Assembly (NCBI GenBank): GCA_034431095.1
Contig: DAOUDM010000019.1
Coordinates: 13,653-77,652, forward strand
DNA length: 64,000 nucleotides
Reading direction: 5' to 3'
DNA from: Dehalococcoidales bacterium
Lineage (GTDB): Bacteria; Chloroflexota; Dehalococcoidia; Dehalococcoidales; W693
A program made the position numbers and the translations under genes. The notes under the pieces were generated by a model that did no database searches, was not told the origin of the DNA, and saw nothing but the letters and a program-made list of their open reading frames with translations. Shown here piece after piece: positions 2,044 to 63,185 of the stretch (the first letter of the stretch is position 1; every line of letters begins with the position of its first letter).

Positions 2044-2562
2044 ATGGATGGGTGGCTATATGGATTATTCGCTCTAGCAGGAGTAATTGTAGGCGGTTTT
2101 TTCACTTTTTTAGGACTTGTTAAGCAACTAGGACAACAAAAGGAATTAGATTCTCGTCAATGGCAACGTAAGATTAGAAGCGAACCGTTACTTAAATTAA
2201 GGGATGAGTTAGCTATAATGGCAACTATGCAAAATAGAGTTGCTAACGCCGCAGAAAAACTATATAACATAGATAGCGATGGGATGGAAAAGGCAAATAT
2301 AGAACTAGAAGAAGCTATAAATGATTGGAATACCTATTTATCAAAGGGAAATCTATTTCAAACTTTGCTTATACAATACGATACAGAACTTTTTAACAAT
2401 GTGCTTAATATTCAGAAAAGTTATATTACCTCTTATCACACCCTACGGCATAAGGTATCTAAAAGAGATGAACGGGATAAAGCTATAGGACCACTAAGTA
2501 AAGTTTGGCAAAATGTAATTTCAGCTCAAGAACTAATCAACAAACGACTAGAGGAACTTTAA
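2044..2562 (+). CDS. hypothetical protein with N-terminal transmembrane helix (AT-rich orphan)
   Basis: 172-aa ORF with an SD (CAGGAG) upstream. The N-terminus is hydrophobic (WLYGLFALAGVIVGGFFTFLGL). It is visibly AT-richer than its flanks and I recognise no family. Confidence 0.5.
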   Translation: MDGWLYGLFALAGVIVGGFFTFLGLVKQLGQQKELDSRQWQRKIRSEPLLKLRDELAIMATMQNRVANAAEKLYNIDSDGMEKANIELEEAINDWNTYLSKGNLFQTLLIQYDTELFNNVLNIQKSYITSYHTLRHKVSKRDERDKAIGPLSKVWQNVISAQELINKRLEEL

Positions 2563-2565
2563 AAA

Positions 2566-2722
2566 GCGGGGAGTTTGAGGGGCGAAGCCCCTCATTAAAA
2601 AGCTTCCCCTTCCCCTTGGCAAGGGGAAGGGGATAAAGGGGATGGGGTTGATAAGAATAAGACACACTTCTATCTTTTCCCACCCGCCGCCCTTTAAGGA
2701 ATAAGATAAGGGGGTGAGGTAG
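2566..2722. repeat. intergenic hairpin-repeat cluster C1 (modules M1+M2+M6)
   Basis: Contains hairpin TGAGGGGC-GAA-GCCCCTCA (2576-2594) and a 13-bp perfect hairpin TCCCCTTCCCCTT-GGC-AAGGGGAAGGGGA (2605-2633) with tail TAAAGGGGATGGGGTTG. It then has TTCCCACCCGCCGCCCTTTAAGGAA. Near-identical copies occur at 39860-39945 and, inverted, at 50459-50545. Confidence 0.85.
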
Positions 2723-16663: not shown

Positions 16664-17114
16664 CCTGCGTTAGCTCCTTCTTTGCTGAATCACTGCCGGC
16701 TTCACTGCCCTCTCTGACTACGAACCTGGTGCCGATAGGCAGTTTGTGTGACGCCAGACGCATCGCTTCCTTGGCCAGGTCGTGGTCGACGCCGCCCAGC
16801 TCAAAAAGAATCCGCCCCCGCTTGACCACGGCTACCCAGTGGTCGGGAGCCCCCTTGCCGCTGCCCATTCGGGTCTCGGCAGCTTTCTTGGTCACCGGCT
16901 TGTCGGGGAAGATGCGTATCCATACCTTGCCGCCGCGGCGAACGTGGTGAACGATAGCCCGCCGTGCCGCCTCAATCTGTCGGCTGGTAATCCAGGCTGA
17001 ATCCAGTGCCTGCAGTCCGAACTCACCAAAGACAACAGTAGCCCCCACCTGGGCTTTACCCCGGCGGTGCCCTTTATGACTCTTGCGATACTTAACCCGT
17101 TTCGGTTGTAACAT
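16653..17114 (-). CDS. rplP: 50S ribosomal protein L16
   Basis: 153-aa ORF beginning [11 protein letters not shown]. Confidence 0.95.
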
Positions 17115-18327
17115 CCGTCTCCTCGGTCTCTATGTCTGCTGCCGGCTTTGCTTTTGTTGTCTTCGTTGCCTTCTTGGCCTTAGTATCCTTTTCCTTTGGC
17201 TCTTTAGTGGCTTTAGTCTTCGCCTTTGTCTCCTTAACCGCCGCCGGCTTCGCCTTCGCCTTTCGCTTGGCCGGTGGTTTTTCAGCCTTCTCTGGCTTTG
17301 CGGCAGGCTCCTCCGCTTTTGCCCCAGCCTCTTCAGCCACCGCCGGTTTCGCCTTAGTGGCTCTCTTTGCTTTTGGTTTAGCCGGCTCGGCTTCCACCTC
17401 GGCAACCGCCGGTTTCGCCTTAGTGGCTCTCTTTGCTTTTGGTTTAGCCGGCTTGGCTTCCGCTTCGGCAACTGCCGGCTCCGCCTTTTTCTTTGCCCTC
17501 GGTTTTACCGGCTTGGCCTCTGGCTCGGCTTCCTCTTTTACTTCTTTTACTTCGGCTTTTATCTTCTCTTCTGCCGTTATTGCCTCTTCAGCTACCGGTG
17601 GCGCCGGTATTTCTTTTGGCTCGACTGCCGCCGGTTCCGCCTCAGTAGCTATGACGGCTTCTGGTTCGGCTGTTATCTCCTCGGCTATTACCTCCTTAAG
17701 CTCCGGCAGAATATCTCCCCGGTATATCCACACCTTGACCCCGATGCGGCCCAGGGTGGTACATGCCTCGGTGAAGCCATAGTCGATATCAGCCCGCAGC
17801 GTGTGTAGCGGTACCCGCCCCCGGTGCATCGTCTGGCGGCGGGCTATCTCGACACCACCCAGCCTGCCGGAACAGCTTATCTTCATTCCCTGGGCCCCAG
17901 CCTGCATGGTGCGGAAAAGCGCCTGTTTCATAGCTCTGCGATAGGCAAGACGACGCTCAATCTGCTCGGCTACCATCCGGGCTACCAGAAAAGCGTCCAG
18001 CTCGGGCTGTCGAATCTCCTGTATATTAAGCTGAACCCTCTTTTTGATAAGGCTCTCAAGGTAGTTCTTGACTTCGTCAACTCGCTGTCCGCCCCGCCCG
18101 ATAACGATGCCGGGCCGGGCGGTGTAGATAGATACCGATACCTTATGTGCCTGACGCTCAATCTCGACCAGAGAGACACCGGCATCGACATATTTATCGC
18201 TGATGGCGTTCCTTATCTTTATGTCCTCGTGGAGGAACTCCGAGTAGTGCTTGTCGGCATACCACTTTGCCTGCCAGTCGCGTATGATGCCAATCCTGAA
18301 CCCAAACGGGTGAACCTTACGTCCCAT
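17092..18327 (-). CDS. rpsC: 30S ribosomal protein S3 with a roughly 190-aa Lys/Ala/Pro/Glu-rich C-terminal extension
   Basis: The N-terminal ~215 aa is canonical S3 (MGRKVHP.GFR). The frame then stays open through a low-complexity tail that runs to, and overlaps by 23 nt, the rplP start. Confidence 0.85.
17339..17470. repeat. 66-bp tandem duplication (2 copies, 63/66 identical) inside the S3 tail
   Basis: 17339-17404 and 17405-17470 align with 3 mismatches. Each copy encodes the 22-aa unit [23 protein letters not shown] degenerate third copy follows. Confidence 0.9.
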
Positions 18328-19826: not shown

Positions 19827-19892
19827 TGCTATTTGGTCTCCTTATTTATTGCCACTATCATTTTCATAAACCCTAAAACTATTATAATTTAT

Positions 19893-19918
19893 ACAACCTC
19901 TTCCCATTAAGCCCCATC
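19893..19918. repeat. degenerate half-copy of repeat module M3 in the rplW-rplB spacer
   Basis: ACAACCTCTTCCCATTAAGCCCCATC resembles the M3 5' flank ACAACCTCTCCCCCTTAATCCCCCTC. No purine arm follows, so no hairpin can form. Confidence 0.5.
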
Positions 19919-19930
19919 TTTATTAAGATA

Positions 19931-24909: not shown

Positions 24910-25034
24910 TTTCTCCCCCTTCTCCGGACAATTTCGAAGGATGAGCCTTAGCTCATCCTTCACAAGCCAAATGAATCGACTGGAACTTTAGCCCAATCAA
25001 TAACCATAGCTGAAGTGGCTATCAACAGCCGCTA

Positions 25035-34508: not shown

Positions 34509-35261
34509 CTACATCCCCGGTATTTCCATTATCTCCACCCCTTCTGGGAGCTCAAACATACTGTCCGGGATATCGACGAACTCTATATTTTTATACTCTA
34601 TTATAACCGTACCTTCGGCAGTCGTCATCTCTACCCGGATAGGGAACCCGTTTTCTTTCCATATCCACATTTTAGTCGTTGTTACCTCGGCGGTATATTC
34701 GACTACCAGGCAGACCTTACCGTCGAGTGTCTCTGGGTCTAAAATCGTCGGATTGTAGTCCGTAATAGACTGGACTTCATCCATAACGCTTTCCACCGGC
34801 TCGTATGTCATTCCCGTAGCCATGTTCTGGTCTGGATAGTAAATATATATTGTCTGAGCATCCATATCCAGCAGCGAAATTATGGTTTGACCTTCGGCGG
34901 TCACTTCCATCCGCATCTTGTTATTTTTAATCCACATCTTCGTAGTCATTGTTGGCATCCCGGGAGAGGTCATCATCACATCGTATTTCACCGAGGTTAT
35001 GCCGGCTGAACGGCCTAAAATCTCACCCAGTGTTTCACCGGGCGTAGTCGTCGTAGTCGGTGTTGTGGTCGTAGGAGTAGTAGTCGTCGGTGCGGTCGTC
35101 GTTGGCGTTGTTGTAGTCGGTGTCGTGGTCGTTGGCGTTGTTGTAGTCGTCGGTGTGGTGGTCGTTGGCGTCGTCGTTGTCGTGGCACAGTTACAGGAAG
35201 CAATCAATAACACTGCGGTTACCAATGCCGCAATCAACAGCAATGACAGCGATTTCCTCAT
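34509..35261 (-). CDS. putative lipoprotein with Thr/Pro-rich linker and LolA-like/DUF4367-like beta domain
   Basis: The start ATG 35261 has a GGAGGGAGG SD. The signal peptide ends in LLIASC (lipobox-like). About 50 aa of (P)TTTT repeats follow. The C-terminal domain (MWIKNNKMRMEV, MWIWKENGFPIRVEM) is assigned to a family only tentatively. Confidence 0.7.
   Translation of the reverse strand: MRKSLSLLLIAALVTAVLLIASCNCATTTTTPTTTTPTTTTTPTTTTPTTTTPTTTAPTTTTPTTTTPTTTTTPGETLGEILGRSAGITSVKYDVMMTSPGMPTMTTKMWIKNNKMRMEVTAEGQTIISLLDMDAQTIYIYYPDQNMATGMTYEPVESVMDEVQSITDYNPTILDPETLDGKVCLVVEYTAEVTTTKMWIWKENGFPIRVEMTTAEGTVIIEYKNIEFVDIPDSMFELPEGVEIMEIPGM
35030..35185. repeat. short tandem codon repeats encoding the Thr/Pro linker
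   Basis: GGTGTYGTNGTCGTNGG-type units are reiterated about 10 times on the plus strand. This is the complement of the (ACN)4CCN codons. Confidence 0.8.
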
Positions 35262-35332
35262 ATTTAACCTCCCTCCTTGGGCTATACCTGCTGAGTCTAG
35301 TCTCGTCATACTCGATTGTCAATACCTTTTAT

Positions 35333-39487: not shown

Positions 39488-39547
39488 AGTCAACCCCTTG
39501 AGCTAATTATATCACTCGGTTGCCGTCAATTATAGGCTTCCTTGAAG

Positions 39548-39955
39548 GTTGGCGGGTGGCTATAGATAAATAAAAGAGAGATTATTTTTCTTAGCAACCT
39601 CTCCCTGCTTAATCCCCCTCTCCTATCAATGAGAGGGGGAAATATCTATAATGGAGGGACTGCGTCCCTCCAAGCCTCCCGCTTTTATAAATGCAAAGCC
39701 TTTCTTAAGCTCTCCAATTTATCGTTCTTCCCTCTCCCTTTAATGAAGGGAGAGGGATAGAGGGTGAGGGATTTATAATAGTTCGCCCCTCTCAAACTCC
39801 CCATTTAAGTCCGTGCCATCTTAAACAACCATCCTAAGCATCCCTGTTTTTCGTTTAAGGGGGGAGTTTGAGAGGGGCCAGCCCCCTCAAATAGAACTTC
39901 CCCTTCCCCTTATTAAGGGGAAGGGGATAAAGGGGATAGGGTTGGTGAAGAAATA
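39548..39955. repeat. intergenic hairpin-repeat cluster C2 (M6-M3-M4-M5 followed by M1-M2)
   Basis: Hairpins lie at 39613-39640, 39653-39671 (GGAGGGAC-TGC-GTCCCTCC) and 39730-39756. A long-range inverted pair lies at 39781-39802 / 39861-39885. M2 with its tail spans 39897-39944. The left part is collinear with C8 and the right part with C1. Confidence 0.9.
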
Positions 39956-43810: not shown

Positions 43811-44055
43811 CAATAACCCCATCCCTCTATTTATTTTGTTAATCTCTCCCCCTTAATCCCCCTCTCTTTAATAAAGAGAGGGGGAAGAGGATTAGAGGGG
43901 CTTCGCTCCTCTAAAACACCCTGTAATACTTTAAGATTTTGTATCTCTTAGACACCCTGTAATATATTTATAGGTTTCACCTCTTTTAAACACTCCTTTT
44001 ATCCCCCCTTCCTTTGGCAAAGGAAGGGGGTCAGGGGGATGGATTTTCCCAGCTT
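43811..44055. repeat. intergenic hairpin-repeat cluster C3 between hisA and hisI
   Basis: Contains an M2-tail complement (AACCCCATCCC), an M3 hairpin (TCCCCCTCTCT-TTAATAA-AGAGAGGGGGA), a degenerate M1 (GAGGGGCTTCGCTCCTC) and an M2 variant. That variant reads CCCCCTTCCTTT-GGC-AAAGGAAGGGGG with tail TCAGGGGGATGG. Confidence 0.85.
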
Positions 44056-48277: not shown

Positions 48278-48289
48278 TTGTCTGCTCAT

Positions 48290-48507
48290 TTAGGGAGTCT
48301 AAGAGAGGCGAAGCCTCTCTTAGACTCCCTTCCCCCTCCCTTATCAAGGGAGGGGGATACAGGGGGAGGGTTGTATTGAAAATCAAAGGGGAGTGGATGG
48401 GGAAGGCTCTTATAATAGAACTCTTTCTTTCCCACCCAAGCCCGCCCTCGTCAGCTTCTTTAAAATATCGGGGGGGTAGCCCCACCGCCCCTTAAGGAAG
48501 GATAGGG
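48290..48507. repeat. intergenic hairpin-repeat cluster C4
   Basis: Contains a 17-bp perfect hairpin GGGAGTCTAAGAGAGGC-GAA-GCCTCTCTTAGACTCCC (48293-48329) and an M2 variant TCCCCCTCCCTT-ATCA-AAGGGAGGGGGA with tail TACAGGGGGAGGGTTG. M6 complements (TTTCCCACCC, CCCCACCGCCCCTTAAGGAAGG) follow, and the cluster ends in GGATAGGGTTG. Confidence 0.85.
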
Positions 48508-50437: not shown

Positions 50438-50454
50438 GGCTTAGTGTTTTAGTC

Positions 50455-50548
50455 TTAACAACCCTATCCCCTGTATCCCCTTCCCCTTACAAGGGGAAGG
50501 GGAATATTTTTATAAGAGGGGCTTCGCCCCTCTCGGACTCTCGATTTA
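50455..50548. repeat. intergenic hairpin-repeat cluster C5 (M2+M1 in inverted orientation)
   Basis: CAACCCTATCCCCTGTATCCCCTTCCCCTT-ACA-AGGGGAAGGGGAA is followed by GAGGGGC-TTC-GCCCCTC. This is the reverse-orientation counterpart of C1. Confidence 0.9.
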
Positions 50549-50571
50549 CTTATTGAGGCTTGTAAAAGGGA

Positions 50572-58174: not shown

Positions 58175-58194
58175 CTACCTCACCCCTGTAACAT

Positions 58195-58512
58195 TCTCTT
58201 GGAGGGTGGTGGGTGGGTATAGATACTAAAAGAAAAATTACTATTCATAACAACCTCTCCCCCTTAATCCCCCTCTCCTTGTAAGGAGAGGGGGAGGGTT
58301 AATATGGAGGGACTGCGTCCCTCCAAACCTCCCTCTATTATGTTTTATATGGGTTATATTCCCCTAAACCTCACTCTATTGTGTTTATATGGGCTGTATC
58401 CCCCAAACTTCCCTTTCGAGCTTTGCCCCTCTTAAACATTCCTTTTATTCCATTTATTCCCTCTCCCTTTATTACAAGGGAGAGGGATAGAGGGAGAGGG
58501 ATTTATATAATT
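58195..58512. repeat. intergenic hairpin-repeat cluster C8 (M6-M3-M4-spacer-M5) between nadB and nadC
   Basis: Holds GGGTGGTGGGTGGGTATAGA, an 11-bp hairpin at 58268-58295, GGAGGGAC-TGC-GTCCCTCC at 58306-58324, and an 11-bp hairpin at 58459-58486 with tail ATAGAGGGAGAGGGATTTATA. It is collinear with the left part of C2. Confidence 0.9.
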
Positions 58513-61967: not shown

Positions 61968-62738
61968 TTATGCAAGGCGGTAAAGTCCTCGTTCAATAAA
62001 CTCCAGATAGCCTTTATCTCTTAAAATCTGTAACTGTTGGCGGATTTTATCTTTAATGTGCTTGTTATCTGGATGTTTTTTGCTTAATACGTTTTCGAAA
62101 GCGTAGACTTCATCAAGGGAAAATTCTTCATTCCCAAGTTCTTCAACACATTTCATGACGTCCAAAAGCCAGCCTTTTGCGTATATCTCCTTTTCTTCTC
62201 TTAAGAAAAGAGTCTTTTGCCATGTTGCAAGAACTTTATCCTTAGGCTCAACTTGGCTGTTTTTAATAAAGAATATTTTCCCTGTTTGAGGAATGCTTTT
62301 CAGTATAATATTACATCCGACCCAACCAGCACGTCGTGCAGTTTGTGCTAACGCTTTTCTTTTTTCTATTATCTCAGGAATAAAGAAGTGTTTGGGTATA
62401 ACGAAAAGATTTAAAACCATAAGATTTTTTAAGTCGTAATTTAACAGAAAGAAGTTTGGATTATTGCTATCCAGCAATCTTTCAATCATGGTACTGTATG
62501 CGCCATTGACTATTTTATTTCCAAATTTATCCCTCTTGCTTTTTAATTCATAAACCTCCTTACAGTTAGAACAGAAAAAATCGGAGACAGGTTTATTGTT
62601 CGCATATTTATTGATGTCAATATTCCCGCAGTTAGGACAATAAACATGATTGCCAACCCAACTCTCAGTTAGAACTCTAATTCTTTGAGATGGATTTTTA
62701 TAATCCTGGGCTAAATCTATTTGAAAGGATAGATTCAT
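61968..62738 (-). CDS. DpnI-like (Dam-replacing family) methyl-directed type IIM restriction endonuclease
   Basis: 256-aa AT-rich ORF. It closely parallels remembered DpnI features: SQRIRVLTE.W....YCPNCG, PV.DF.C..C.E.YELKS, NNPNFF.L.Y, ARRAGW.GCNI, and a C-terminal winged helix with HIK.KIRQQLQILRDK. Confidence 0.85.
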   Translation of the reverse strand: MNLSFQIDLAQDYKNPSQRIRVLTESWVGNHVYCPNCGNIDINKYANNKPVSDFFCSNCKEVYELKSKRDKFGNKIVNGAYSTMIERLLDSNNPNFFLLNYDLKNLMVLNLFVIPKHFFIPEIIEKRKALAQTARRAGWVGCNIILKSIPQTGKIFFIKNSQVEPKDKVLATWQKTLFLREEKEIYAKGWLLDVMKCVEELGNEEFSLDEVYAFENVLSKKHPDNKHIKDKIRQQLQILRDKGYLEFIERGLYRLA

Positions 62739-62802: not shown

Positions 62803-62894
62803 TGGCGGAGGGGGAGGGATTCGAACCCTCGACCCCGGTTTCCCGGGGTAAGCGCTTAGCAGGCGCCCGCACTAGGCCACTATGCGACCCCTCC
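62803..62894 (-). tRNA. tRNA-Ser (anticodon GCT), CCA encoded
   Basis: The reverse complement is GGAGGGGTCGCATAGTGGCCTAGTGCGGGCGCCTGCTAAGCGCTTACCCCGGGAAACCGGGGTCGAGGGTTCGAATCCCTCCCCCTCCGCCA. It forms a class II cloverleaf with a long variable arm and anticodon loop CTGCTAA. Confidence 0.92.
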
Positions 62895-62974: not shown

Positions 62975-63185
62975 CTTTAACAACCTTTCCCCTTAGCCCT
63001 CTTCCTTAAGGGTGGTGGGTGGGAATAGACAGTAAGAGAGGGATTTATATTTGCTACCAACCTCACCCCCTTAATCCCCCTCTCCTTATAAGGAGAGGGG
63101 GAGATATAAGAAAGAGGGGGCATAAGCCCCCTCTAAACACCCCCTTCCAGGTGCTGGTTAGGGGAGAGAGATAAAAAGAAATAGG
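62975..63185. repeat. intergenic hairpin-repeat cluster C9
   Basis: Contains M6 (GGGTGGTGGGTGGGAATAGA), an M5 tail fragment (AGAGGGATTTATA) and an M3 11-bp hairpin at 63075-63102. An M1-type hairpin AGAGGGGGC-ATAA-GCCCCCTCT lies at 63113-63134. Confidence 0.85.

Follow-up and report, generated by a model that had tools for sequence, protein, structure and literature searches.

Intergenic arrays of small hairpin-plus-third-strand repeats of the BoxC/PIT/TM kind in Dehalococcoidales

In the 64,000-nucleotide stretch of Dehalococcoidales DNA analyzed here (the window), two segments, at 39548-39780 (C2-left) and 58195-58512 (C8), run through the same series of repeats and hairpins and raise the question of whether they are copies of a single mobile element. 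An earlier note on this DNA had read them as collinear copies of a non-autonomous, MITE-like element of 230-320 bp. The collinearity itself is borne out: BLASTN of 39540-39785 against the window aligns 39541-39688 with 58198-58341 (81% over 148 nt, E 6e-32) and 39725-39777 with 58454-58507 (91% over 54 nt, E 4e-15), and a MAFFT alignment (A1) gives both segments the same order of modules, with an additional block of about 74 nt in C8. The hairpins described in that note are indeed perfect palindromes (39613-39640, 39652-39672, 39729-39757, 58268-58295, 58305-58325, 58458-58487), and a third region, C9, which had been taken for a shuffled subset, is in its left part (63004-63107) collinear with 39540-39645 (BLASTN, 78.5%, E 3e-16). 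The segments are repeated, modular, non-coding, non-autonomous and polymorphic between relatives, as the MITE-like reading supposed, but the unit of repetition is only about 98 nt long, and below that level it is the single hairpin with its third block; terminal inverted repeats, a consistent target-site duplication and a transposase that recurs beside copies in 115 loci are all missing. C2-left and C8 are intergenic arrays of small hairpin-plus-third-strand repeats, not one jumping element.

The core of the unit consists of two homopyrimidine/homopurine hairpins, each with an adjacent block that is the mirror image of its purine arm. Its elementary module, one such hairpin plus the neighboring mirror block, is an intrastrand triplex motif of the kind found in BoxC/PIT/TM_ECO, and two of these motifs, a-b-b' and c-c'-d, stand back to back in the ~98-nt unit. 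Knowledge of BoxC/PIT/TM motifs in E. coli goes back decades. In the long form, the a side of the unit is extended by a G-rich box and an A-rich spacer; the G-box lies 44-51 nt upstream of the unit in the window copies, L055, L089 and L014, and is present in L174, L214, L171 and L233 as well. Potential for G-quadruplex formation was noted for the G-box and for the G-rich arms.

Read along the plus strand, C2-left begins with the G-box GGTTGGCGGGTGGC plus TATAGATA (39547-39568; direct reading), the left module of the long form, and continues with a full unit at 39589-39688 (covariance model CM R1, 82.8 bits, E 4e-18), in which block a (39596-39607), a TTAA joint, hairpin 1 (39613-39640), hairpin 2 (39652-39672) and block d (39673-39681) follow each other; on the minus strand, the triplex finder places a purine-motif class II triplex motif at 39599-39638. 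A decayed copy of the hairpin 2 3' arm plus block d (39696-39724) aligns in A1 with 58422-58447 of C8, and the right-hand hairpin of C2-left is a class II intrastrand triplex motif, CCCTCTCCC..GGGAGAGGG..GGGTGAGGG, at 39730-39770. Beyond it stands a half-copy of the hairpin 2 3' arm plus block d (39782-39807, plus strand; direct-repeat family D7, inverted repeat I1) and then, on the minus strand, a full unit of the GGGGAAGGGGA subfamily (39854-39950; 87.4 bits; triplex motif at 39898-39941). This last unit is a full copy of the one at 2561-2656, in agreement with the earlier note, and the stem proposed there between the half-copy and the next unit is also present, 39785-39808 pairing with 39855-39878 over 24 nt (92% complementary, 46 nt apart).

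C8 is laid out in the same manner. Its G-box, GGAGGGTGGTGGGTGGG plus TATAGATA (58201-58225, plus strand; direct reading), is retained in L235 and L236, and its full unit (58245-58341, plus strand; 101.7 bits) comprises block a (58252-58263), TTAA (58264-58267), hairpin 1 (58268-58295), hairpin 2 (58305-58325) and block d (58326-58334), with a triplex motif on the minus strand at 58255-58294. The additional block of about 74 nt, in what had been called a variable spacer, is a 41-nt tandem repeat of the hairpin 2 3' arm, block d and a tail, present in 2.4 copies on the plus strand (58318-58414; 81% matches, score 125 with Tandem Repeats Finder). A half-copy of the hairpin 2 3' arm plus block d (58422-58447, plus strand), again of family D7, leads to the right-hand hairpin, the class II intrastrand triplex motif CCCTCTCCC..GGGAGAGGG..GGGAGAGGG at 58459-58500 (plus strand). 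Both arrays thus terminate in an additional TM_ECO-like motif.

Altogether, the CM R1 finds eight full, mutually alignable copies and at least five partial ones in the window. The remaining full units lie at 2561-2656 (C1, minus strand; 99 bits, also detected by the triplex finder), 43834-43929 (plus strand; 95.3 bits, with an ortholog in L128), 48285-48380 (minus strand; 84.8 bits), 50453-50550 (plus strand; 96.1 bits) and 63052-63150, the last forming, with a G-box at 63010-63023 and a spacer, the C9 array (63010-63150, plus strand; 84.8 bits). The model matches 219 times (187 + 32) at E < 1e-5, in 115 loci that include related MAGs and hence are not all independent. Nearly all of these loci are Dehalococcoidales-like. 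An apparent spread across phyla, suggested by labels such as delta-proteobacterium, Calditrichales and Bathyarchaeia, was dropped: most of the odd-labeled loci, a few short contigs excepted, align with Dehalococcoidales loci over kilobases (72-84%), so that their labels or bins must be wrong. Many matches fall at contig ends.

Conservation across 150 copies falls to background about 10 nt beyond the unit, and unit identity reaches 83-97% between genomes whose genes are only ~70% identical. The copies are intergenic, overlapping predicted ORFs in only 2 of about 147 cases. Within the hairpins, 97.8% of cells are paired and two-sided changes occur in 19 of the 22 pairs; G-U pairs are as rare as mismatches, which fits a constraint on the DNA level or on both strands. 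The predicted RNA folds are stable (z between -4.4 and -6 for five of the six strands folded, among them -5.2 for 39589-39688 and -5.45 for 58245-58341; -2.4 for the minus strand of 63052-63150) and leave blocks a and d unpaired. At gathering scores, Rfam 15 matches nothing in the window except two tRNAs, and the segment 39480-39980 yields nothing near threshold even with permissive settings. Literature searches with the arm sequences retrieved unrelated eukaryotic papers only, and none on such repeats in Dehalococcoidia was found.

Set against b' in mirror image, block a matches in 9.63 of 11 positions, compared with 8.69 +/- 0.14 for shuffled pairings (0 of 10,000 as high) and 5.98 in direct orientation, and block d agrees with c at 4.91 of 7 positions (shuffles 4.62 +/- 0.07; 2 of 10,000 as high); these mirror statistics count over few subfamilies, and related copies inflate the shuffle statistics. 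Matched third blocks are kept in at least five hairpin-1 subfamilies and in five hairpin-2 variants, and where orthologous sites carry different subfamilies, as in the comparison with L128, all three blocks are altered together. Without selection on the three-block geometry, or a part for it in the copying, such co-variation would be difficult to account for. With 8-nt stems, a perfect hairpin and at most one triad mismatch, the triplex finder reports 11 purine-motif triplex motifs of class II and two of class I for the window; 20 shuffles yielded none.

The units show the general PIT/BoxC/TM arrangement, in which a pyrimidine block, its purine partner and a Hoogsteen-type third block lie on one strand; they are multicopy, conserved and intergenic, and their loci are rearranged or deleted between close relatives, as judged on repeat-bearing spacers alone. 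The two right-hand motifs, at 39730-39770 and 58459-58500, come closest to TM_ECO in comparison with the published sequences: their arms match, those of 39730-39770 being identical to E. coli TM_ECO no. 2. The strict pattern (CCCTCNCCC N3-6 GGGNGAGGG N3 GGGNGAGGG) excludes them, since the loops measure 9-10 and 5 nt in that register, and they match only when the loops are widened to 3-10 and 3-5, a pattern for which 0 matches are expected by chance. The triplex finder also detects both. Because of the loop lengths, we assign these motifs to the general class and not to TM_ECO. When the right-hand module was compared with E. coli genomes by BLASTN, there was no match, for which low-complexity filtering is the probable reason. 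The arms are G/C tracts of low complexity, and their resemblance to TM_ECO, like that of the third block to a Shine-Dalgarno sequence, could be partly compositional or convergent.

The units are not placed at random with respect to genes. In co-directional spacers, the G-rich end points toward the next gene in 47 units and away from it in 19, and 96 of 132 a ends face a gene start, compared with 59 of 130 d ends, counts that include related MAGs whose loci are not independent; the bias could stem from the direction of replication rather than from the downstream gene. Divergent spacers hold 27 units and convergent ones seven. In 16 of 92 units, an ORF start codon follows the a' G-run by 8-20 nt, and a pattern search found solo a' blocks ahead of two genes. 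One of these, ACAGGGGTGAGGT (58176-58189, minus strand; also by direct reading), is retained in the short nadB-nadC spacers of relatives and is a putative Shine-Dalgarno sequence of nadC, whose ATG begins 8 nt past its G-run; the other (2708-2720), likewise a putative Shine-Dalgarno sequence, precedes a PGM-like gene and follows C1 and a C-box (2679-2692). By its sequence and position, the a' block may well be used by the downstream gene in this capacity. Scans of both arrays for sigma-70 promoters gave no more than shuffles. A role as terminators was considered and dropped, because an intrinsic terminator scan of both arrays was no better than shuffles and the units are rare between convergent genes.

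Close relatives differ at these sites by whole modules. The nadB-nadC spacer, 341 nt long in the window, measures only 93 nt in two genomes whose NadC is 89% identical, and relatives with a protein identity of 91-96% have 280, 169 and 122 nt between an EamA and a radical SAM gene where the window has 478 nt. Both filled and empty sites occur in other MAGs too, with near-consensus units at sites that are empty in relatives. In both spacers, relatives have some parts of the composite (the G-box and a) but not the rest, so the composite is not an all-or-none unit; two indel borders, independent of each other, coincide with the a|TTAA|b joint, block a being kept in the 'empty' relatives. The junctions vary (ACC/ACC in L007, none in L020, GATTA/GATTA at nadB-nadC, CCC/CCC in L239 versus L237), and all of these differing repeats are compatible with microhomology. 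Mobility, which the earlier note had made dependent on relatives that differ from each other, is thus not contradicted, since clusters do differ and empty sites do exist; its remark that neither terminal inverted repeats nor target-site duplications are visible is confirmed by the inverted-repeat scan and the junction comparisons.

We consider it probable that C2-left and C8 are intergenic arrays of shared modules from a triplex-motif family that extends across the Dehalococcoidales, and that the instability of these modules reshuffles them. A DNA strand left unpaired during replication, transcription or supercoiling would fold into the hairpins, the third block would then occupy the major groove of the hairpin, and the G-rich strand would form a purine-motif triplex of G.G-C, A.A-T and T.A-T triads; judging by in-vitro results for identical arms, the Dehalococcoidales units may be capable of this. 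Triplex folds should cause replication to stall and slip and should favor repair; modules would be duplicated, deleted or exchanged whole at the joints, and spacers would lengthen or shorten between close relatives. Copies persist mainly in the spacers ahead of genes; there the G-rich third block (AAGGGGGTGAGGT) is turned toward the gene, often as its putative Shine-Dalgarno sequence. Instability accounts for loss and local duplication, but not for near-consensus units at new sites, and it leaves unexplained why the units are so much better conserved between genomes than the genes; a transposition-like or conversion process is still needed besides it.

In a rival explanation, a single-strand-specific HUH transposase (RAYT or IS200/IS605-type), encoded once elsewhere in the genome, would recognize the hairpins as its sites and place copies of the units in further spacers without duplicating the target; the arrays would then be BIME-like mosaics. 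Numerous hairpin-based, intergenic copies, inverted overlapping pairs and mosaic clusters, the lack of terminal inverted repeats and target-site duplications, near-consensus units where relatives have empty sites, conservation above that of genes, and two indel borders coinciding with the a|TTAA|b joint all speak for this REP/REPIN-like origin. We nevertheless regard it as unlikely: the foot of the hairpins lacks the GTAG/CGTC head and has the consensus TTAA-TCCCCC and AAAGAGGGGC; the only protein families recurring beside copies in the 115 loci, a search for RAYT and other transposases that covered the copy neighborhoods alone, are those of housekeeping genes; a REP family is usually confined to one species, whereas this unit is common to genomes with ~70% gene identity; and the mirror-image third blocks would be left unexplained. 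A classical MITE, in which the composite of 230-320 bp would derive by deletion from an insertion sequence and be moved whole by a transposase binding its terminal inverted repeats, fares far worse. The module order common to two copies, similar unstructured spacers included, its recurrence in L166 (unit, spacer, right hairpin) and the GATTA that flanks the 250-nt difference at nadB-nadC on either side can be cited for it, but the scan of both arrays detected internal hairpins only and no inverted repeats at the composite ends, the ends of the unit (gTTTATCAACC... and ...AACTCCCCTTTT) are not complementary to one another, the junctions in four comparisons share no duplication, relatives keep pieces of the composite, and the boundaries of conservation delimit the 98-nt unit. 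This reading is largely refuted and has, in our view, a minimal probability.

The units might instead be cis-acting RNA leaders, situated in 5' UTRs, whose hairpins and (anti-)Shine-Dalgarno-like tracts control mRNA stability or translation downstream. Their enrichment upstream of genes and in divergent spacers, the orientation bias, the Shine-Dalgarno distance of a' from a start codon in 16 of 92 cases, the very stable predicted hairpins, and the a' block itself, of which 10 nt are complementary to the canonical 16S 3' tail, count in its favor. Yet both orientations are found, units also lie 100-900 nt from starts, G-U pairs are no commoner than mismatches, the same genes in close relatives do without units, a matching Rfam family is absent, and the pairing predicted between the C-box and the Shine-Dalgarno block does not exceed that of shuffles (z = 0.07 and -0.26). 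Moreover, purine-motif triplexes do not form in RNA (PMC4666352), and we consider a role as leaders rather improbable. A bolder proposal would give the third block a dual part, as Shine-Dalgarno sequence of the downstream gene and as Hoogsteen partner, with modules inserted at the TTAA joint by triplex-guided choice of target: the incoming hairpin would pair with the target strand beside an existing Shine-Dalgarno-like tract. The a|TTAA|b indel borders and the way in which block a tracks b' across subfamilies at orthologous sites are compatible with this scheme, which we hold to be very unlikely; if true, it would represent nucleic-acid-guided target choice comparable to the guide sequences of IS200/IS605, achieved by triplex, and would give portable ribosome-binding cassettes.

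For the BoxC/PIT/TM motifs, the triplex-motif arrays favored here provide comparative evidence that had been missing, namely that the third block co-varies with its hairpin across subfamilies and orthologous sites. A streamlined, uncultured lineage with otherwise short spacers offers testable features in its orientation-biased bipartite unit, the third block of which is also a putative Shine-Dalgarno sequence, and in the gain and loss of modules between close relatives. There are practical consequences as well, as contigs of Dehalococcoidales MAG assemblies end at triplex-motif repeats, and these repeats can seed spurious ORF calls.

Among known systems, REP/BIME elements (Enterobacteria, Pseudomonas; mobilized by RAYT) are likewise short intergenic palindromes of high copy number that form variable mosaic arrays without target duplications; the Dehalococcoidales repeats differ from them by strictly homopurine/homopyrimidine arms with a mirror-image third block, by the absence of the GTAG/CGTC tag and of a RAYT gene beside the copies, and by a distribution across genera. 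With MITEs such as Correia/NEMIS, Nezha and Chunjie, they have in common a size of 100-300 bp and a non-coding, intergenic and strain-polymorphic nature, whereas the window arrays possess neither terminal inverted repeats nor a fixed target-site duplication. The pneumococcal BOX element (boxA-boxB-boxC) is modular, with a variable number of internal modules, intergenic, predicted to fold stably and devoid of an obvious transposase of its own; it has defined terminal modules and is not known to be related in sequence to the Dehalococcoidales units or to consist of triplex-type mirror repeats.

The closest relatives by construction are the BoxC/PIT/TM_ECO repeats, intrastrand triplex motifs found in E. 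coli and further Enterobacteria and reported from cyanobacteria as well (Hoyne et al. 2000; Holder et al. 2015, PMC4666352). TM_ECO oligonucleotides from E. coli form a stable triplex in vitro, although in-vivo DMS footprinting did not detect the triplex in E. coli, and reporter tests in that host revealed neither promoter nor terminator activity; the repeats are intergenic, lie more often upstream of ORFs, occur as inverted pairs and mark hypervariable loci (PMC4666352). In the Dehalococcoidales, too, pyrimidine arm, purine arm and a reverse-Hoogsteen block in which T faces an A-T pair are consecutive on one strand, and the right-hand motifs have the TM_ECO arms CCCTCTCCC / GGGAGAGGG / GGG(T/A)GAGGG; copies are intergenic, multicopy, highly conserved and upstream-biased, inverted pairs are common, and the loci are unusually variable between close relatives, with no transposase recurring beside the copies. 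Unlike TM_ECO, the Dehalococcoidales family has longer loops than the definition permits, arms of 11-13 nt in several co-varying subfamilies, an optional G-box module and a ~98-nt unit of two mirror-arranged motifs (class IV + III on one strand, I + II on the other); its units are biased toward the downstream gene, with the third block as a putative Shine-Dalgarno sequence, whereas an orientation bias was reported to be absent in TM_ECO, and its host is an uncultured lineage of the Chloroflexota. The family is hence an abundant, fast-changing variant of the BoxC/PIT/TM kind in an uncultured lineage.

The best reading of the collinear repeats C2-left (39548-39780) and C8 (58195-58512) is that both are arrays of intrastrand triplex motif repeats. 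Repeats of this type are known; here they take a new, more elaborate form and occur in a new lineage. Common to eight aligned copies in the window is one unit of about 98 nt with the consensus gTTTATCAACCTCACCCCC-TTAA-TCCCCCTCTCCTT-loop-AAGGAGAGGGGGA-(~10 nt)-AGAGGGGC-TTC-GCCCCTCT-tA-AACTCCCC-TTTT, whose blocks are labeled a, b and b' (hairpin 1), c and c' (hairpin 2), and d; a' denotes the G-rich complement of block a. A covariance model built from these eight copies finds eight full units in the window (2561-2656, -; 39589-39688, +; 39854-39950, -; 43834-43929, +; 48285-48380, -; 50453-50550, +; 58245-58341, +; 63052-63150, +) and at least five partial ones, as well as 187 + 32 matches (E < 1e-5) in 115 loci pulled from species-representative genomes by the hairpin pattern. 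Conservation, scored position by position, reaches background level about 10 nt 5' of AACC and directly after CTCCCC; therefore, the repeated entity is this unit and not the 230-320 bp element that an earlier note had proposed. In a long form, a G-rich box (GGGYGGYGGGTGGG), TATAGATA and an A-rich spacer of about 25 nt adjoin the a side of the unit; it is present in the window at C1 (the unit at 2561-2656), C2-left, C8 and C9 (62975-63185), and elsewhere in L014, L055, L089, L174, L214, L171 and L233.

The collinearity of the two arrays is borne out by two BLASTN matches in the same order (39540-39785 against the window: 39541-39688 with 58198-58341, 81% over 148 nt, E 6e-32; 39725-39777 with 58454-58507, 91% over 54 nt, E 4e-15) and by a MAFFT alignment, in which the module order is the same and C8 is longer by a block of about 74 nt. 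This additional block comprises 2.4 tandem copies of a 41-nt repeat (58318-58414) made from the 3' arm of hairpin 2 and its tail. Two minus-strand genes flank each array. The C2 array, with an EamA transporter gene on one side and an AmmeMemoRadiSam radical SAM gene on the other, runs G-box, unit (+), decayed half module, TM-like hairpin, half module, unit (-), while C8 occupies the entire nadB-nadC spacer and runs solo a', G-box, unit (+), tandem half modules, half module, TM-like hairpin. The hairpins named in the earlier note are all perfect palindromes, and the stem that it drew from an inverted half-copy exists (39785-39808 with 39855-39878, 24 nt, 92% complementarity); C9, described there as a shuffled subset, is collinear with the left half of C2-left. 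A decayed unit remnant lies at 19827-19929 between the L23 (rplW) and L2 (rplB) genes of the S10 operon, where L064 carries an intact unit. In the ribosomal protein gene cluster, the ORF at 17092-18327 (-) contains 66-nt repeats (17229-17459).

Both hairpins of the unit are strongly supported: pairing extends to 97.8% of the cells, changes on both sides are seen in 19 of 22 pairs, and neither shuffled nor slid pairing controls come near the observed value. The scarcity of G-U pairs, which are roughly as infrequent as mismatches, suggests that the constraint acts on the DNA or on both strands instead of on a single RNA. Fold z-scores range from -4.4 to -6 for five of the six strands folded (63052-63150 minus, -2.4), and blocks a and d are unpaired in the folded strands. 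Unexpectedly, block a is the mirror image of hairpin arm b, neither its complement nor a direct copy, and in five or more subfamilies its non-C positions track the A positions of the purine arm b' (b'/a pairs: GGAGAGGGGGA/CCTCACCCCCT, GGGGAAGGGGA/CCCCATCCCCT, GGGAAGGGGGA/CCCATCCCCCT, GGGGAGAGGGA/CCCCTCACCCT, AGGGAGGGGGA/ACCCTCCCCCT, AGAGAGGGGGA/TCTCTCCCCCT). In mirror orientation, a matches b' at 9.63/11 positions when averaged across 41 distinct pairs, versus 8.69 +/- 0.14 for shuffled pairings (0/10,000 as high); in direct orientation the value is 5.98. Block d mirrors hairpin 2 (4.91/7 versus 4.62 +/- 0.07; 2/10,000 as high), as in the pairs AGAGAGG/ACTCTCC, GAAGGGG/CTTCCCC and GGAGGGA/CCTCCCT. 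At orthologous sites of relatives with about 82% identity, the subfamily differs and the three blocks have switched jointly (C1 versus L154; the unit at 43834 versus L128). With the third blocks (a and d) on the G-rich strand, the triads are solely G.G-C, A.A-T and T.A-T, the antiparallel purine motif, and a simple triplex-motif finder returns 11 motifs of class II and 2 of class I for the window, and for 20 shuffles it returns none. The architecture of the unit is that of intrastrand triplex motifs, and we infer that it can fold accordingly into a triplex.

The genes of the window share about 70% DNA identity with the MAG loci of Dehalococcoidales that the genome scan yielded, and 82-83% with L154 and L128, which are the closest metagenome contigs; the unit is 83-97% identical to the copies in these loci. 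For the NadC and radical SAM relatives, the source records give the names Chloroflexota or Dehalococcoidales. Eight public MAG records (L014, L015, L018, L037, L060, L075, L092, L113) are labeled delta-proteobacterium, Deltaproteobacteria or Calditrichales; they align with Dehalococcoidales contigs over kilobases at 72-84% nucleotide identity, and so they seem to have been mislabeled or wrongly binned. The family is therefore, a few short contigs aside, essentially confined to Dehalococcoidales. The high-GC soil metagenome contigs L119 (4514-4667) and L137 (2055-2216) contain an identical hairpin (TGGAGGGAC-TGC-GTCCCTCCAA plus ACCTCCC) as the final module of a different multi-hairpin repeat of about 155-160 nt, bounded by 15-19-nt inverted repeats (TAGGACGTACGCAA... 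/ ...TTGCGTACGTCCTA); this repeat resembles a MITE or a GTAG-type REP, and another phylum is its probable source.

Spacers of relatives differ by modules. Two genomes whose NadC is 89% identical have a nadB-nadC spacer of 93 nt, which retains nothing but a', the spacer, TATCTATA and the C-box; that of the window is about 250 nt longer, the surplus comprising hairpins 1 and 2, the tandem repeat and the right hairpin, with GATTA at both borders and its end at the TTAA joint. The EamA-radical SAM spacer, 478 nt in the window, measures 280 nt in L237, 169 nt in L239 (each 91% protein identity) and 122 nt in L238 (96%); the promoter-proximal 60 nt or so are kept, all differences are whole modules, and a purine arm without a partner in L237 is a deletion scar. 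We infer structure-induced instability of the repeats. For the step by which near-consensus units arrive at new sites, the main rival is a REP/RAYT-like single-strand mechanism. L036 reads TGATACC|ATG where L007 and L020 have inserts of 135 and 200 nt, each containing a unit in the same orientation but of a different subfamily, and in a further case L031 is filled where L072 is empty. Because relatives differ in this way, they do not all carry identical clusters lacking empty sites, the pattern that would speak against the mobility envisioned earlier; the MITE model itself is nevertheless unsupported, since no fixed duplication is common to the junctions compared, the arrays lack terminal inverted repeats, as had been noticed by eye, and no transposase-like family recurs near the copies in the 115 loci.

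Units with two called neighbors lie in 66 co-directional, 27 divergent and 7 convergent spacers; the G-rich strand is sense in 47 and antisense in 19 of the co-directional ones, and a gene start is faced by the a end in 96 of 132 cases and by the d end in 59 of 130, counts that overstate the sample size because related loci are not independent. Block a' (AAGGGGGTGAGGT) can pair over 10 nt, one G-U pair included, with the canonical 16S 3' tail. A start codon follows the a' G-run by 8-20 nt in 16 of 92 units facing an open frame, and a solo a' stands ahead of nadC and of a PGM-like gene; judged from sequence, a' is likely the Shine-Dalgarno element of these two genes and of those with a start codon at that spacing. 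The C-box is predicted to form a regulatory hairpin with the Shine-Dalgarno block, but this pairing does no better than chance. The PGM/GlmM-like gene lacks a canonical start codon (2708-2735): its conserved N-terminus (IKFGTDGWR) begins directly after an in-frame TAG (2720-2722), and its frame has no ATG, GTG or TTG upstream of 2972. An ATA at 2723 lies 8 nt past the G-run of the solo block, the spacing of the nadC ATG, and this GGTAG-ATA arrangement recurs in L021.

Elsewhere in the window, the segment 61700-63000 is low in GC (0.38 versus 0.54 window-wide), contains a DpnI-family restriction endonuclease gene (61968-62738) adjoining tRNA-Ser (62803-62894), and may be a small acquired island. 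Cumulative GC skew is minimal near 25000, where gene orientation changes from minus to plus around a non-coding spacer (25.0-25.36 kb); this could be a replication origin or merely an operon boundary. The ORF at 34509-35309 (-) contains a repeat of 15/9-nt period (GTCGTCGTAGTC-like, 35041-35196).

Intrastrand triplex motifs were named BoxC in E. coli, later PIT elements (Hoyne et al. 2000) and then TM_ECO, with the pattern CCCTCNCCC N3-6 GGGNGAGGG N3 GGGNGAGGG (Holder et al. 2015, PMC4666352). In vitro, the triplex that TM_ECO oligonucleotides form is stable; DMS footprinting did not detect a triplex in vivo, and PIT elements showed no promoter or terminator activity (PMC4666352). The TM_ECO motifs are always intergenic, are commoner upstream of ORFs and frequently form inverted pairs, and E. 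coli strains differ unusually strongly at the loci that carry them (PMC4666352). The right-hand hairpins of our two arrays (39730-39770 and 58459-58500) have arms that are exactly those of E. coli TM_ECO no. 2, including the T of the third block, but fit the pattern only with widened loops, a fit for which the chance expectation is none. The loops of the window elements lie outside the strict definition, and we therefore file these elements under the general class of intrastrand triplex motifs rather than under TM_ECO.
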